Assembly: GCA_951406725.2 (NCBI GenBank)
Contig: OX597832.1
Span: 18,166,001 to 18,230,000, forward strand
DNA from: Octopus vulgaris
Lineage: Eukaryota
Length of the DNA: 64,000 nucleotides
Direction: 5' to 3'
Below are positions 865 to 56,456 of the stretch, piece after piece. The translations under genes were made by a program, and so were the position numbers. The notes under the pieces are model-generated. The model was not told the DNA's origin and did no database searches. It saw only the letters and a list, made by a program, of their open reading frames with translations. Positions within the stretch are counted from its first letter, which is position 1; every line of letters starts with the position of its first letter.

Positions 865-1700
865 TGTGTGTGTGTGTGTGTGTATAGCGAGAGAGAGAAA
901 GAGAGAGCGAGAGCTAGATAGATTGATAGATAGATAGATAGATAGATTGATTGATATAGATATCTTATTCCACGCACATACAAATGAAATATGCATTGAA
1001 GTTTCTTTACCTAACGTAGAATCTGCAAGAAATATCTTTATGCGAGATATAGCTCTCTCGTCTTCAAAATTCATGTCGATTTCGGCATATCGCAAATCTT
1101 TCAATCATTCAAGATCTATATCAAAGTCTGTTTCGCTTCTCAGTCTTATTGTTTACCCAGAATGCGGCAGCGAGGATTTAATTAATTTTCTCGGACGCAA
1201 CGTTAGCACCTGCGCTCACTTGTTAATCACTGTCACCTACGGCGGGTTTCACCTGTCATAACTATCTGTTTGTAGGCTTTACTCGGTTCTCTAGGATGTA
1301 GACCAATCTCGGGTATGAAATTGCGGGAAGCTGAATAACATCACTTCATCGGTGCTGTATTGACCAATTACTGATATTTAGATCTGTTTAGCTGGTTAGA
1401 AAATTCGATTTTGTTCAACCAGTGTACTGTACGTAAAATGACCATGATTATTTGTTTACATACATACATACATACATACAAGATTCAAAGCTCCAAGTGC
1501 CCCGTTCTTGTTTTTTGCATCGTCTGTCCGAATGTTTTTTGGCACCTGTTATTTTCTTGTTCCTTTTTTGTCTGGGATACAGTAAAAATTATTAATACAA
1601 GTAATAAGAGAGAGACCACATGTGGTCACTCTAACGCTAGAAATAGATTCGCAAAGGGAATCCACCACTAAAGAATTGTTCTCAAGCATTAATTCAACCA

Positions 1701-1930
1701 ATTTCTTTACTACCCACAAGGGGCTAAACACAGAGAGGACAAACAAGGACAGACAAACTGATTAAGTCGATTATATCGACCCCAATTAATAACTGGTACT
1801 TAATTTATCGACCCCGAAAGGATGAAAGGCAAAGTCGAACACGGCGGGCTTTGAACTCAGAACGTAACGGCAGACGAAATACGGCTACGCATTTTGCCCG
1901 GCGTGCTAACGATTCTGCTAGCTCACCACC
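1701..1930 (-). mobile_element. Full-length SINE, family 2 (Nin-like central domain, OK-type; name tentative)
   Basis: Head GGTGGTGAGCTAGCAGAATCGTTAGC, B-box-like GAGTTCAAA, body GACTTTGCCTTTCATCCTTTCGGGGTCGATAAA; 18-bp TSD CAAGCATTAATTCAACCA at 1683-1700 and 1939-1956. Confidence 0.9.
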
Positions 1931-2274
1931 CTTTAATCCAAGCATTAATTCAACCATGTGGTCTCTCTCTTATTACTTGTATTAATAATTTTTACTGTAT
2001 CCCAGTTTTTTTTCGCTAGGCCACTTGGTGTTTTAAATTTATGTTATTAATTAATATTCAATTTTTTTTCACTCTTATTGTGATTTTAATTATAAATTAA
2101 TATGTTCTCAAACCGGCAGTAAATTACTGGGGTAGTATCTACATCCGGTATTTTCAACGCGCCAAGAGTGAGGATAATTGAACGTAACTGCAAATATAAT
2201 CGGCTGTGCCGTTCGCCTTTGCTCGGCTTCGTATGGATTTTGGTGTTCGGTTCAGCAAATTATATTTTTGATAT

Positions 2275-2350
2275 ACTCTACTGAGGATTCGAAAATGATT
2301 ATGTAAGTAAAATTACTCAATCTATTAACGATGAAACAATTGTATAGAGT
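2275..2350 (+). ncRNA. Type I hammerhead ribozyme motif, intact core
   Basis: Stem I ACTCTA/TAGAGT (6 bp), CTGAGGA 2281-2287, stem II TTCG/CGAT, GAAA 2333-2336, palindromic stem III ACAATTGT, cleavage triplet GTA ending at 2344. Confidence 0.8.
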
Positions 2351-2739
2351 TAATCTATTTTTTTCCTTATTTTTCATTTGTCCTGCCCGCTTACATTCTT
2401 GTCGTGTTGAATTCATGCTTGAGAACAATTCTTTAGTGGTGGATTTCCTTTGCGGATCTATTTCTAGGGTTAGAGTGACCACACGTGGTCTCTCTCTTAT
2501 CACTTGTATTAATATATATATATATATATATATACATTCATAAATTTTGAATGACTATTTTACTTTTACGTTTAGCACCCATAACAATTTCTTAGTTTTT
2601 TCCACTATTACTTTTCTCGCCCCCACAGTCTCTCACATTTCTTGGCCCCCCTTCACTCTCATCACTTTCCCTCACCCTTTATCTCACACTGTTTTCGTGT
2701 GCATTCGCTTGCTTTCTTCTAAAGAATTTCATGCCCTTA

Positions 2740-2985: not shown

Positions 2986-3300
2986 AATGGTAAGACAACA
3001 CAGGAATGAAAGAGATCTCGATATTATGTAAATAGTGGATCTTATTTGTAAAATAGTATGCGACAATAATTCTGTTGACATGATAAAACTCCGAACTTCG
3101 TATGTCGGAGCGGAAATCCGCACCAGCATCTCTTCAGTCATCGAGGCAATTAAAATATGCCAAACGATCTGTAAGTTTCTAAATAGATAGCATATATTAA
3201 TTGCCTCGATGATTCAATAGATGTCGGTGCAAGTTTCCGCCTCGACACCCAAAACTCAGAGTTTTATCATGGCAACCGAATAATTGCCACATATTATATT

Positions 3301-12409: not shown

Positions 12410-12698
12410 GTTCCTTGTCTTTCCTGATGAGAAGACGGCATAATGCACCCTTTATTCCTTCGGAATTAAGAATAAGCAGTCTTCGAAACATGTGTCGAGA
12501 ATAAAGGAATTTTGTTAAATCGTCGTTCGACTCCATTCTTTCATTTATCTATAGTAAAAAAACACAAATTTCCACACGAAAGCACGTGATTTCTGCCTTT
12601 GGCATGTAGCTTTAACCGTGCTTTCTGACGTAAATTGCTGCTACCCGGGTATCGGTTAACCGAATTATCCATACTAGGATAATTCATTCAACTACTTA

Positions 12699-17254: not shown

Positions 17255-17880
17255 TGTTACAAATAACACGGAAAAAAATTAATAGTTACCAGGGTAGCAA
17301 AAATTCAAGCAAGTACCAACGGTATAACAACCTACTTATAAAGATAGAAAGTGTAGGTTTATGTGAAATGTTTTTGAATAACATAAATAAATAATAAATG
17401 GAGTTAAAAGCAGGTGTTATTCAAATCTTCTTACTTCCGATATATGTTTCGAAGAAAACATTGGTATTATTCCAGAAGGAATTAAAATGGTCTAAAACAA
17501 TGCAATCTTCTCATCAGGGGAAGAAAGAAACCAAACACATCAATAAAACATATGTATATGATAAAGAGAACGCTAGAAAGTTGTTTCTTTTTCTTTTTTA
17601 ATCCGTTAGTAGATATAAGGTCAAAGGTTGTTTATAGGAAGAGAAATAGGAGAAAGAAAGAAATTGGACAAAGATGGTGCCTTCTGGAATTTTTTCGCCG
17701 GATCCAGTATTCACAATCATGCGGAGGCAAGCTCTAAATTTTCAAGAATTACATCCCCTTACGACGTTTAGCCCGGCAGTCGCAGCTGCTTATTAGGTTA
17801 TGGGTGGTGTTGCTTGCAAACAGATATTTGGAGCCGCAACTGAAAGTAGAGTGCCACCAAAGTGGATGAACAGAGTCAGA
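17255..17880 (-). mobile_element. Penelope-like 3' fragment, family E
   Basis: Hammerhead at 17428-17529 and downstream homology to 12410-12700; the upstream part may be decayed endonuclease C-terminus (weak); boundary approximate. Confidence 0.6.
17428..17529 (-). ncRNA. Type I hammerhead motif, near-canonical
   Basis: TTCTTTCTTCCC-CTGATGA-GAAGA..CATTG...CAATG..TCTTC-GAAACATATATC-GGAAGTAAGAA; stem I CTTCC/GGAAG and TTCTT/AAGAA; triplet ATC. Confidence 0.72.
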
Positions 17881-24496: not shown

Positions 24497-24793
24497 ATTC
24501 GGATGGATTAGGTGCTTAAGTTGAGGCACCAAAAATTAGTGCGGAATTATCCGTACACTTTGAAATAAGGTGAATAAAATCAAAATAAGCAACAGCATAT
24601 CGTGACGTGATGCACTACGATCATTTCAAGCGACTTCTATTTATTTATTCATTCATTCTTTCATATATGTGTTTATTTATGCAGCTGAGGATAGCTCTGC
24701 ATTTAAATTGATGTAATTATTACATTGTTCAATTAAATAGAGTCGCTTGAAACGATCGTACTGCATCACCTCTGGATATCCTGCTGCTTAGTT

Positions 24794-24824: not shown

Positions 24825-25309
24825 ACATTTTTGTAAGTCTATTCTTCGGTCGGTTTATATTATTTTTATTATTACTCGAAGGGTTGTTATATAACCTTTT
24901 GTATCTACTGTATCTATACAGTATACATACATCGGGCTTCTTTCACTTTGTCTTGTACGAAATTTATTCACAGGTTTGGTCATAACTCTGTTATATATGA
25001 GTACACTATACCATGGTGCATGCAGGGTGGGAAACAAACATCTGACTAAAAGTGTATTTAGGAGTAGAATAAGTGTGGAACAGATGTAGGGAATGCAAAT
25101 ATGACCTAGAAAACGGAAGCCAGTCCCATGTGCTTCTAGTACGTCGAAAGAGTGATTGATCAGGTTCTAATGTTTAACTGGGAGATGGAAAAAGTTTCAC
25201 ATCGAAAAATAAGAAAGCTCCAATGCGGCCTGTCTTTTTCATCGATTCGCTTCAAATAAATCCCGTTCAATAGCATTTTCCTCTACTGTTGAGTCCATTG
25301 TAGTATATC

Positions 25310-25801
25310 AGCGTGCTACAAGAAGCAAAAATGACCAGCATCGAAGCCTATGTCATCAAAGGCCAACTAAGATGTAGCGGCCACGTGGTTAGAATGACTG
25401 ACGAACGACTTCCCAAACAGATCTTCTACTCCCAACTCAAAGACGGCAAGCGTATAAAAGGAGGCCAGAAGAAACGCTACAAGGACTCCCTGAAATCGAA
25501 CCTCAAAAAGTGTGACATTGACTTCACCAACTGGGAGGAAACGGCAAAAAACAGACCACTCCGGAAAACCACCATCCATGAGGGAACGGCGAATTTCGAG
25601 TCGAAAAGGTCTGCAGAGCTGGAGGAGAAAAGACGACGACGGAAGGAGCACCAACAACAATCACGTGCGAGTCTCCCTTCCGGCACTAGATGTCCGCACT
25701 GTGACCGATCTTTTCGAGCAAGAATTGGTCTTATCAGCCACCTGCGGACTCACCAATAAATTTGCGCGAAGACCATCATCCTCGACCTTGAGGGATTGCC
25801 A

Positions 25802-39779: not shown

Positions 39780-40015
39780 CGTTTTTCCGTCCCTATTTTG
39801 TATATATTCGAGGCTTTCTTCCAAGCAATCTAATGCGTTTGGCTTAGATTTTCCTTTGGGGCTGGCCAGATCGGAGCAATCTCAAGATTAATCAGCCGAA
39901 ATTGCGAGGATGATCCGGTTCTTGACTGAAGATTGAAGGCTTCGAATGTCCCGTCCGTGTTTTTTGCATCGTCTTCTAAATGTTTTGTGTTCTTGTCCCA
40001 GTTTGTATTTTTTTA
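39780..40015 (+). mobile_element. Family D repeat
   Basis: Homologous to 2740-2930 and 1481-1570; followed by (TA)n. Confidence 0.55.
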
Positions 40016-53455: not shown

Positions 53456-53895
53456 GTCTTTGCACAGCTTCTAACGCTTCGAGTACCTTCCGGAGTATTC
53501 GAGCGGTTCCAAGCAATGCTGTTTTCTGCATGTGCTCCACCCTTAGTGCAGCCCCTATTTGGTCTATGTAGTTCTCAAGAATTTTACTCACAGTTCCTAA
53601 GGATCCAACCGCAATTGGTACTACTACCACTTTTTCGCCGATCCCACCAACTGCCTTACCTCCCAACCTAACCTGTCATATCTATCGACTTTTCTTTTTC
53701 CCATATCGAATACGTTGCTGTCAGCTAGGCAAGCTATATCTATTATACAGCATCGTTTTCTCTCTTTCTCAATTAACATTCTGTCTGGTTTCCTATTCTC
53801 TATCTCATGATCGCAATGACTCATAAAATCCCACAGGGTCTTTGCATTAGCAATTTCGTTGATGCCTTCCGGTTTATGTTCGTACTTGTTGCAAA
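53456..53895 (-). mobile_element. Dong/R4-clade restriction-like endonuclease (RLE) domain and 3' end, decayed
   Basis: YEHKPEG...LWDF..HCDHEIENRKPD...IIDIAC...KVDRYDRL and VVVVPIAVGSLGTV...MQKTALLGTARILRKVLEA; ends directly in (AAT)n. Confidence 0.88.
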
Positions 53896-53899
53896 GTGT

Positions 53900-56456
53900 T
53901 CTTTGTAGAATCAATATCAAAATCCTAGCAGCCAAGCTGAGCACTTCTGGGTGGGGGCTTGCTCTGCTCACGTGTGAATTCCGATTTCTTTAACATATTT
54001 CTCGAACTTGCTCCGAGTGCCCCTACAACTGCTGAAATTCTGACACTCTCCTAAAAGTCCACATTCTTGCAATTTGGTCTCTTAGTAATCATTGTTTTGC
54101 AATTTTCTCTGATTCTTTCTCACTTATCCGTGCGCCTCCGTGTATTGCACTATCTATGATCTTGGTTTCCTTTTTTTCTTTTATCTACCACAACAATATC
54201 TGGTCTACGAGCTTCTATTAAGGTGTTACATCTGATTGTAAAATCCTACAGTATCTTATATTCCTTGTTCTCCGTGACTCCTTCTGGCTCTTCTTCGTAC
54301 CGTTTCTGTGCTCTGTTTAGGCCATACTTTTCACAAAGCCTCTAATAGACGACCTTAGCCACGTTGCCGTGCCTCGTTTTGTATTTCTTTTGGGCCAGCT
54401 CACTACACTCACTCACTCACAATATATGAGATTGTTTCGCTTCTGCTGTCACTCATCTTACAAAGGGGCGATACGCTGGTCCAATATATTTGAATTTTTG
54501 TGTAATTAGTTCTCAGAGCTTGTTGCCGGGCGCTGTATATCAATACCTCCATGCATCCTTTTAACTCACTTATTCTTAGCCATCTTCAAGTATCCATCTT
54601 GTCTTTTCAGTGGTTTCATTTTCCAGTAGTTTACTCTTCTTTCTTAAATGTTTGTGGGTTCACATTTTCGGTAGACATTATATTGTTAATTCTAACAGCA
54701 GTAAGCAAGGATTCATGGTCTCAGACTGTTCTTCTCTTCGACAACACAGATTTTGCATCCAAAGTTACTAGGCACATACAATCCGTCGCTTTTGGAGTGT
54801 AGCTCCTTCTTAATTGTCATCACATTTCTAGTTTTCCTGCCCATTTCCTCAACCTCGTCCTTTGTCCAATTTAAGGAGACAACCCATGTGTTCATTGCTC
54901 CGACTTTGTCTTTTCCATTGATTTCTTTTTCTCTAATTAACTTGTATCTTTTGAAATATCTTGCCTAAAGCCTTCCTTTATTTCACTTTTTTTGATTTTG
55001 TCGTATTCTAAAATATCCAGATATTTATATCTATTCGTCTCAATATCCTGGATTTTCTCGCTGTTGGGTAACTCTGAACCATCAGGTGACATTATTTCGC
55101 TTACCACACGTTTTAGTCCCAAATTCCATTCCGATATCCTTACTGAGTGTCTACACTTTTGAATCTAGGTCATTTATTTCTCGTTCGGTCTTTCCAAATA
55201 TCTTTAAATCATCCATATATAACAAATGACTTAATTTTCCTCCACTTTTCAAGGTCTACCGCGATGTCACTTTCCGTAGTTCCTGTGTGAGGGATATCAT
55301 ACGAATCAGAAACCGCCATGTTGATAGGCTATCTCCTTGAAATATCCCTCTCTTGATGTTAATCGTCGCCAAACATTTTACACATGATATTAACACTGTG
55401 TTAATAGATGATGCAGGCTTTAATCAATCTATTTGCTCCGGTTACGTCTTGTAGTATTTTATTCACTTGAAGGGCTCACCCTTTGAATAAATTTCTATCT
55501 CCCTTCCTAAATCCATTTATTTCCATTTACTAGTTTTCCTTAACGATACTAATAATGTCTTCGATCATTCCTTTGTCATCATTATTTAGACCTCTACACT
55601 CAGGGCTTGAGACAGTATAATTCTCCAGTTTGCTCTCCTTATGTACAGCTTCGTCAGTGCTCTCAGTATGTACTTCTACATCGCTCCCAAAGTTTTTGGT
55701 CATCGCCCTCCTCCTAATTGCATCCAGCTTGCTAATTCCATCCTCCTAATTTTATTCAGTACTGTTAGCCATCTTTTCTTCCTCATTGCTCTTACGTTCG
55801 TTACAGAGTCTCTGGTCCGTAATAACTGAGCCCTGCATCCTCTTTCTATATCCTCTTATGGGTTTCCTTTCATTTTCAGTGGGTCTGCTCAAAAAACAAC
55901 ATTCCATACCATCTGTATTAATCGGCTTAGACCATTTAGTTCTAGCAGCCGTATTATGACCACCGGGCCAGAGCTGCTCACCCACAGAGCAGCTGCCGGG
56001 CAAAAGCCCGTCCAATGTAGTTCCACCCTCATATACGCCGTTCTTTGTGTTAATTCTAGTATTCATTACTGACATGCAGAGAAAAGTGTTGATAAGTTTT
56101 CACAACGACCAGTATTTTTACGGAGGCACCATCTCTAGAGGGATTTGTCTAAATACACTCATAGAGACCCTCCTTCTCATCGAAGTTTAAGTGAGCTATC
56201 CTGAGCTGGACACTAAAACCCAGAATTCAGTGCTCCGCAGGTGGTGAATGGTGAATGATTTGTTGTTTGGGTGGCTGTTGACTCCTCAGAGTTAATCCAC
56301 CCTTAGACAATTCTTGTATTTCATCCTGAAGGGTAACCAAATAACAAAAAAAGCACCCTCCTCACAAAGCAAGCTCTGTGGGGTGGCTGGTTTAGACGCC
56401 GACGGCCCGACAGCTGGAAGAATGGGAGGAGGGAAAGGTGGTAGTTCCCTAAAGTT
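53900..56456 (-). mobile_element. Internally deleted, decayed Dong/R4-clade non-LTR retrotransposon (5' UTR, N-terminus, partial RT, zinc knuckle, RLE)
   Basis: RTKWSK...GYRKRM...ITDQRLC N-terminus; INIKRGIFQGDSLS about 55365-55322; LSHLLYMDDLKIFGK with YMDD at 55208-55219; YKYLDILE; ETISHIV..ELAQKKYKTRHGNVAK; ARRPDIVVVDK; 5' end abuts (AAT)n. Confidence 0.88.

Follow-up and report, generated by a model that had tools for sequence, protein, structure and literature searches.

Does the DNA at 2275-2350 specify a hammerhead ribozyme, and is the T-T pair that opens its stem II a conserved variant or a blemish of one decaying copy? The earlier note had described a full core, a GTA triplet, a palindrome, a perfect stem I and a T-T first pair in stem II, and each of these was found at the positions claimed. 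Coordinates refer to the window, the whole stretch of 64,000 nt that was analyzed; this is animal DNA rich in microsatellites, in which SINEs and fragments of LINEs occur. The features are collected in Table 1.

Table 1 Hammerhead features and associated repeats in the window
Feature	Position	Strand	Details
Stem I	ACTCTA 2275-2280 / TAGAGT 2345-2350	+	Watson-Crick, 6/6
Core, first half	CTGAGGA 2281-2287	+	
Core, second half	GAAA 2333-2336	+	
Stem II base	T2288 (10.1) opposite T2332 (11.1)	+	followed by three pairs, TCG/CGA
Stem-loop II, 45 nt	2288-2332	+	U2288·U2332 mismatch, 3-bp base stem, internal loops, apical hairpin 2302-2317
Stem-loop III palindrome ACAATTGT	2336-2343	+	
Triplet GTA	A2344 = position 17	+	predicted cleavage 3' of A2344
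527-nt non-coding repeat unit with hammerhead, multi-copy family	1988-2514	+	33.6% G+C
Partial tandem, pLTR-like	1955-2005	+	5'-truncated direct copy of the unit 3' end running into the unit start
Inverted 5'-truncated copy of the 3' end, plus tail	1572-1698	-	1590-1698 versus 2406-2514, 94%
Later SINE at the inverted/direct junction	1701-1938	-	18-nt target-site duplication, 1683-1700 and 1939-1956
(TA)n microsatellite at the element 3' end, likely insertion target	2512-2534	.	two X1 contigs also enter (TA)n behind 2509
Second U·U hammerhead, separate repeat family	24679-24766	+	palindrome ACGATCGT, 57-nt stem-loop II
Inverted partial copy of the 3' half of the second element	24579-24646	-	T11.1 and GAAA kept
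Third hammerhead, slightly decayed	12420-12500	+	G10.1-C11.1, 54-nt stem-loop II
Fourth hammerhead, decayed	17435-17523	-	G10.1-C11.1, 60-nt stem-loop II, core at 17517

At the sequence level 2275-2350 on the plus strand is a complete type I hammerhead motif. Under the core definition given in PMC3088659, all consensus positions of the type I core are present (C3 U4 G5 A6 N7 G8 A9, G12 A13 A14, the A15.1-U16.1 pair and H17) and the three-helix topology has stem I open, with 6 bp in stem I, 3 bp plus an extension in stem II and 2 bp in stem III. The usual G10.1-C11.1 pair is absent, its place being taken by T2288 and T2332; this pair is not obligatory, and active U·U members have been published. 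An alternative parse, in which T2288 is the extra base after A9 seen in PLE (Penelope-like element) hammerheads, leaves T2289 opposite T2332 followed by C opposite A, a worse stem as judged by eye.

The motif was compared with shuffled sequence. A strict descriptor (stem I of at least 6 bp, a palindromic 8-mer and stem II of at least 3 bp) matched in none of 200 block-wise dinucleotide shuffles, and a loose descriptor gave a mean of 0.065 matches per shuffled 64 kb versus three in the real sequence. The pattern CTGANGAT-N38-62-TGAAACNNNNGTA, which was composed after the motifs were known, matched twice in the window versus never in 100 shuffles. An Rfam search of 2000-2900 with E values up to 10 returned no hammerhead family, only four weak unrelated matches, and over the whole window the best 150 of 300 matches were microRNA models lying on microsatellites. 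The Rfam miss at 2275-2350 is likely owing to the 45-nt insert in stem II.

The hammerhead lies within a larger repeat. The sequence 1955-1987 recurs at 2482-2514, which defines a unit of 527 nt, and the locus holds about 1.1 units with one hammerhead. The inverted copy of the 3' end that had been placed at 1588-1698 is real and reaches further, to 1572, the last part being an 18-nt tail (1572-1589) complementary to 1988-2005. The direct 3' repeat and the SINE with its target duplication were missing from the earlier note. The SINE, which we take to resemble an octopus tRNA-derived SINE, has 18 additional blastn matches across the window; ARAGORN detected no tRNA gene. The signature described for PLE insertions consists of a partial tandem, an adjacent inverted 5'-truncated copy, a one-sided tail and a bias toward (TA)n (PMC8557442). 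At 1572-2534 we found the partial tandem (pLTR), the adjoining inverted 5'-truncated copy, the tail and (TA)n, although the tail is 18 nt rather than the 30-40 of the PLE description. With a distance cut-off set after the fact, (TA)n lies 36-207 nt downstream of all four hammerheads in the window versus 17.6% of background sites.

No Pfam reverse transcriptase or GIY-YIG domain was detected in 150 of 328 frames, these being complex frames of at least 45 aa and including all 42 near the four hammerheads, and the unit itself has neither an ORF nor a Pfam match. As no ORF for a reverse transcriptase plus GIY-YIG is present, the element is not classed as an autonomous PLE, and no autonomous partner came to light among these frames. 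A non-coding sequence of 527 nt and 33.6% G+C with a single type I hammerhead fits the description of a non-LTR retrozyme unit; its length exceeds the 170-400 nt of the retrozymes in PMC7229834 and falls within the 51-972 bp range given in a preprint (bioRxiv 10.64898/2026.07.22.740005). We consider it probable that the type I hammerhead at 2275-2350 is complete and has a U10.1·U11.1 mismatch shared across its family, and that the 527-nt non-coding repeat around it is likely a PLE of the non-autonomous, non-LTR retrozyme type.

Copies of the family were sought by mapping contigs of sequencing runs X1, X5, X8 and X11 (organisms A, A, B and C) on 1957-2512 at 80% likeness. These are four of 24 listed runs, for which the best share of words was 0.30; none is recorded as RNA, and the RNA status of X5 is a guess. 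The numbers of contigs mapped were 103, 21, 484 and 236, respectively, covering 30, 28, 30 and 30 of 30 bins. With contigs from four runs lying across nearly the whole unit, the element is a multi-copy family common to three organisms. Head-to-tail joints led back 527 and 497 nt in X5 and a similar joint was present in X8, whereas no contig spanning two hammerheads was among the pieces listed. Four joints to the opposite strand indicate that inversions recur in the family. Loose ends behind 2068 in X8 and X11 showed that some copies exit the unit there into (TA)n, and thus that insertion end points vary among copies.

These joints bear on a different reading of the unit, namely that it is only the 3' end (pLTR or UTR) of an autonomous PLE and that the 527-nt period is a local truncation product rather than a family in its own right. 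The joints lead from the 3' end back to the unit start and just 1-8% of the mapped DNA contigs continue into unlike sequence, both of which argue against a longer parent element, as does the lack of an ORF or Pfam match. Most PLE insertions are indeed 5'-truncated (PMC8557442; bioRxiv 10.64898/2026.07.22.740005), and summed contig depth was higher over 2300-2490 than over 2147-2260, although contig depth is unfit to rank parts and the low-depth part was bridged by contigs in all four runs. We regard a mere 3' end as unlikely and retain the 527-nt repeat as the unit.

The same contigs were used to follow the U·U mismatch. The free core position N7 (2285) carried G, A, C and T, the variants being found in 47 contigs at 65-79% of depth, but no change at 2288 or 2332 was among the 40 best-supported of 76 variant rows, nor was a change at any other core position except U4C. 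The T>G tallies per run were 3, 1, 3 and 4 (X1, X5, X8 and X11), and positions 2040, 2239 and 2402 account for all of them in X1, X5 and X8, which excludes T2288G at a level of at least 2% in these three runs. X11 has one T>G row beyond the 40 best of 76, for which no position is listed. The T>A tallies are likewise exhausted in X5 and X8, and one to three T>C rows per run fall outside the 40 best of 76, such that T>C at 2288 or 2332 is possible. A diverged relative found as a single contig keeps the T after A9 and has a different stem II. Together, free variation at N7 and the absence of U10.1 to G in three of the four runs indicate that the U·U was inherited rather than produced by decay, and these comparisons support a mismatch that is family-wide.

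The earlier note's view of a conserved variant and not decay is thus supported by the related copies, and T11.1 is also kept in the inverted copy of the 24679 element; the novelty that it implied is not supported, as U·U hammerheads were already on record (PMC3088659, PMC7229834). That the T-T is decay of a single copy, or the whole motif a chance assembly, could draw on the miss by Rfam and on the at least 12 private differences that the 2275-2350 copy shows in 556 nt, one of which falls in the apical hairpin. Given the 0 of 200 shuffles, the absence of T2288G in three of four runs and a second family with the same T-T, this explanation is already largely refuted and we assign it only a very slight probability. 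A telomere-like TAGGGTTAG at about 2465-2473 was also ruled out, the family having C at 2468.

The core mutation U4C was found in all four runs, at 4-53% of depth with one to three contigs each, indicating that copies with a broken core have also spread. A joint of 2035 to 2230 in X8 and X11 marks a high-depth inverted derivative of the family that apparently carries U4C, which suggests amplification of a catalytically dead form.

The U·U mismatch is not universal in the window, since two of the four hammerheads have G-C. The two G-C motifs, which the earlier note lacked together with the long stem-loop II, belong to one family (68% over 138 nt), and their homology extends some 200 nt further, as far as a (TA)n end. 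The second T-T motif is present as had been described, and its element has the same layout as the 527-nt element, with the inverted arm at 24579-24646. It had been called unrelated to the first. This stood for the flanks, which show no alignment above chance (scores as good came from 696 and 872 of 1000 shuffles), but less clearly for the stem II inserts, which are of borderline similarity (59 of 1000 shuffles) and share an ATGTAA...TTAC apical hairpin. Judged by these alignments the two motifs are separate families, the U·U of which may go back to a common ancestor. The inverted and direct arms at 24574-24810 fold into a long hairpin of -81.5 kcal/mol in which the 3' half of the hammerhead would be tied up; it contains several same-base mismatches (C·C, G·G and U·U).

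In all four hammerheads of the window 45-60 nt separate A9 from G12 and give a base stem, internal loops and an apical hairpin. In the 2275-2350 copy T2317 is private; the family has an A that pairs with T2302, and T2317 breaks this pair of the apical hairpin. Stem III has the form AC-NNNN-GT in all four, with a perfect palindrome in both T-T motifs and an imperfect one in both G-C motifs. The ACAATTGT hairpin was computed at +2.4 kcal/mol versus -6.4 kcal/mol for the self-duplex, and as the duplex is favored the palindrome at 2336-2343 is a likely dimer interface in these calculations. At -8.4 versus -10.4 kcal/mol, the active fold of the monomer is 2.0 kcal/mol less stable than the free minimum, and the fold z-score of the motif is -0.64. 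A weak stem III hairpin, a stable duplex and an active monomer fold above the minimum fit the dimer-dependent cleavage described for PLE and amphibian hammerheads (PMC4209133; review PMC6765202).

Poor folding of the lone motif could also mean that the ribozyme travels as a passenger with weak or no catalytic activity, the U·U having arisen once in a founder and been amplified without selection on cleavage. Amplification of the U4C copies fits such a history, as would descent of both U·U families from one ancestor, and Anolis Poseidon inserts in vitro without need for hammerhead cleavage (PMC11167929). However, N7 varies in all ways while the remaining core positions, U4C aside, are not among the 40 best of 76 variants, and both U·U families keep stem I helices and palindromes that are perfect yet different from one another. 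Moreover, the same variant cleaves in axolotl (PMC7229834). We hold a passenger to be quite improbable.

Naturally occurring U10.1-U11.1 hammerheads have been published as a rare variant with the best-tolerated mispair (Perreault et al. 2011, PMC3088659), and the mismatch is identical to that of 2275-2350. The axolotl HHR_Amex2 comprises about 60,000 motifs in which helix II starts from a U·U mismatch and stem III has 2 bp and a tetraloop; monomers reach 22% cleavage in 1 h and dimers do much better, and the repeats are expressed as circular RNA (PMC7229834). The octopus element shares with HHR_Amex2 and its Rtz_353 (Cervera and De la Pena 2020, PMC7229834) the type I form, the U·U, the 2-bp stem III and a short non-coding repeat of low GC content. 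Unlike Rtz_353, with its unit of about 350 nt rather than 527 nt, the octopus locus is a dispersed single copy with an inverted arm. Its stem-loop II measures 45 nt. Both the U·U variant and the kind of element are already known from axolotl, and novelty of the U·U is not supported. As the variant has a tested precedent, the octopus case adds one more lineage to it.

The pLTR hammerheads of PLEs (Cervera and De la Pena 2014, PMC4209133) also resemble that at 2275-2350 in being type I with a palindromic 15.2-16.2/loop 3 and a predicted dimer, in their AT-rich flanks, and in their occurrence as dispersed singles and inverted pairs. Inspection by eye of the 56 representatives in Fig. S3 of that paper showed none with U·U at 10.1/11.1; most have G-C and one base more after A9, and the stem-loop II spans about 12-23 nt versus 45-60 nt in the window. 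Craig et al. 2021 (PMC8557442) used a descriptor with a 7-17 nt spacer and listed eight "half-core" cases with spacings of 35-50 nt, among them two Naiads from cephalopods. The Naiad PLEs of Octopus and Euprymna in that paper share with the window elements the (TA)n preference and the tandem plus inverted layout, some being HHR_half_core with the halves 35-50 nt apart. Six short motifs of the window elements were not found in the supplement of PMC8557442, where line breaks may hide matches. No link to the published Naiad consensus sequences was found, the 3' ends of Naiad_Ovul and Naiad_Obim being by eye unlike the window elements. In these 3' ends a 6-bp inverted repeat and half-boxes of the hammerhead appear, their order permuted and the CTGATGA box followed by T; no full ribozyme could be drawn from them by eye (PMC8557442). 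In the literature consulted on octopus or cephalopod, U-U and long-stem-II hammerheads the present family is not described, although Lunse et al. 2016 (PMC5785218) or the PMC7229834 supplement may show such forms. A giant squid paper lists only 235 Rfam Hammerhead_1 matches. An exact 19-nt pattern gave four matches in metagenome contigs, none with a core within 70 nt upstream, and these were put down to chance.

By analogy with these published relatives, transcripts spanning head-to-tail copies would be cleaved 3' of A2344, chiefly in dimeric form, with an 8-bp stem III made from two ACAAUUGU palindromes. Note that only one of nine Xenopus retrozyme dimers cleaved (preprint, bioRxiv 10.64898/2026.07.22.740005). 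The U·U would weaken stem II, yet be tolerated. Cleavage would free a unit-length RNA of 527 nt able to circularize. The reverse transcriptase and GIY-YIG endonuclease of a PLE would next insert a copy a little longer than one unit into (TA)n, with the inverted copy, the partial tandem and the tail as traces. With only one hammerhead, the locus itself would release no unit; it probably represents an inert product of insertion that differs from the family by about 2%.

What sets the window hammerheads apart is the somewhat unusual length of stem-loop II. Hammerheads with such long arms are overlooked by Rfam and by short-spacer descriptors whether or not they carry U·U, and ribozyme-bearing PLE derivatives may therefore be undercounted in such genomes. 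More tentatively, and with considerable doubt, we suggest that a lineage probably of octopod type carries very abundant, unannotated type I hammerheads with long arms (45-60 nt with an apical hairpin; four in 64 kb), in which a tertiary contact of the arm would offset the loss of G10.1-C11.1 and the U·U would have originated independently of axolotl. Such hammerheads would be the missed ribozymes of the (TA)n-targeting PLE clades that were reported without canonical hammerheads owing to descriptors with a 7-17 nt spacer. The window has families with U·U and with G-C side by side that share one architecture, a natural pair in which stem II strength and dimer dependence can be set against cleavage.

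Several further repeats were seen in the surrounding DNA. A repeat family with a degenerate CTGAAGA...CGAA...GTC motif is found at 1480-1571, 2765-2930 and 39880-39990, flanks the element on both sides, and is possibly an old hammerhead-bearing repeat. An RTE-like LINE 3' end with a C2H2 finger lies at 25304-25756 (+), the finger being the sole Pfam match above the cut-off among the 150 of 328 frames searched. The segment at 53627-53989 (-), which is without a Pfam match, is presumably a LINE fragment with a probable REL-endonuclease. Two MITE-like inverted repeats are at 519-725 and 3058-3290, the first of which has a CTGAAGA...GAAA match on the minus strand at 592 that is without stem I and probably due to chance.
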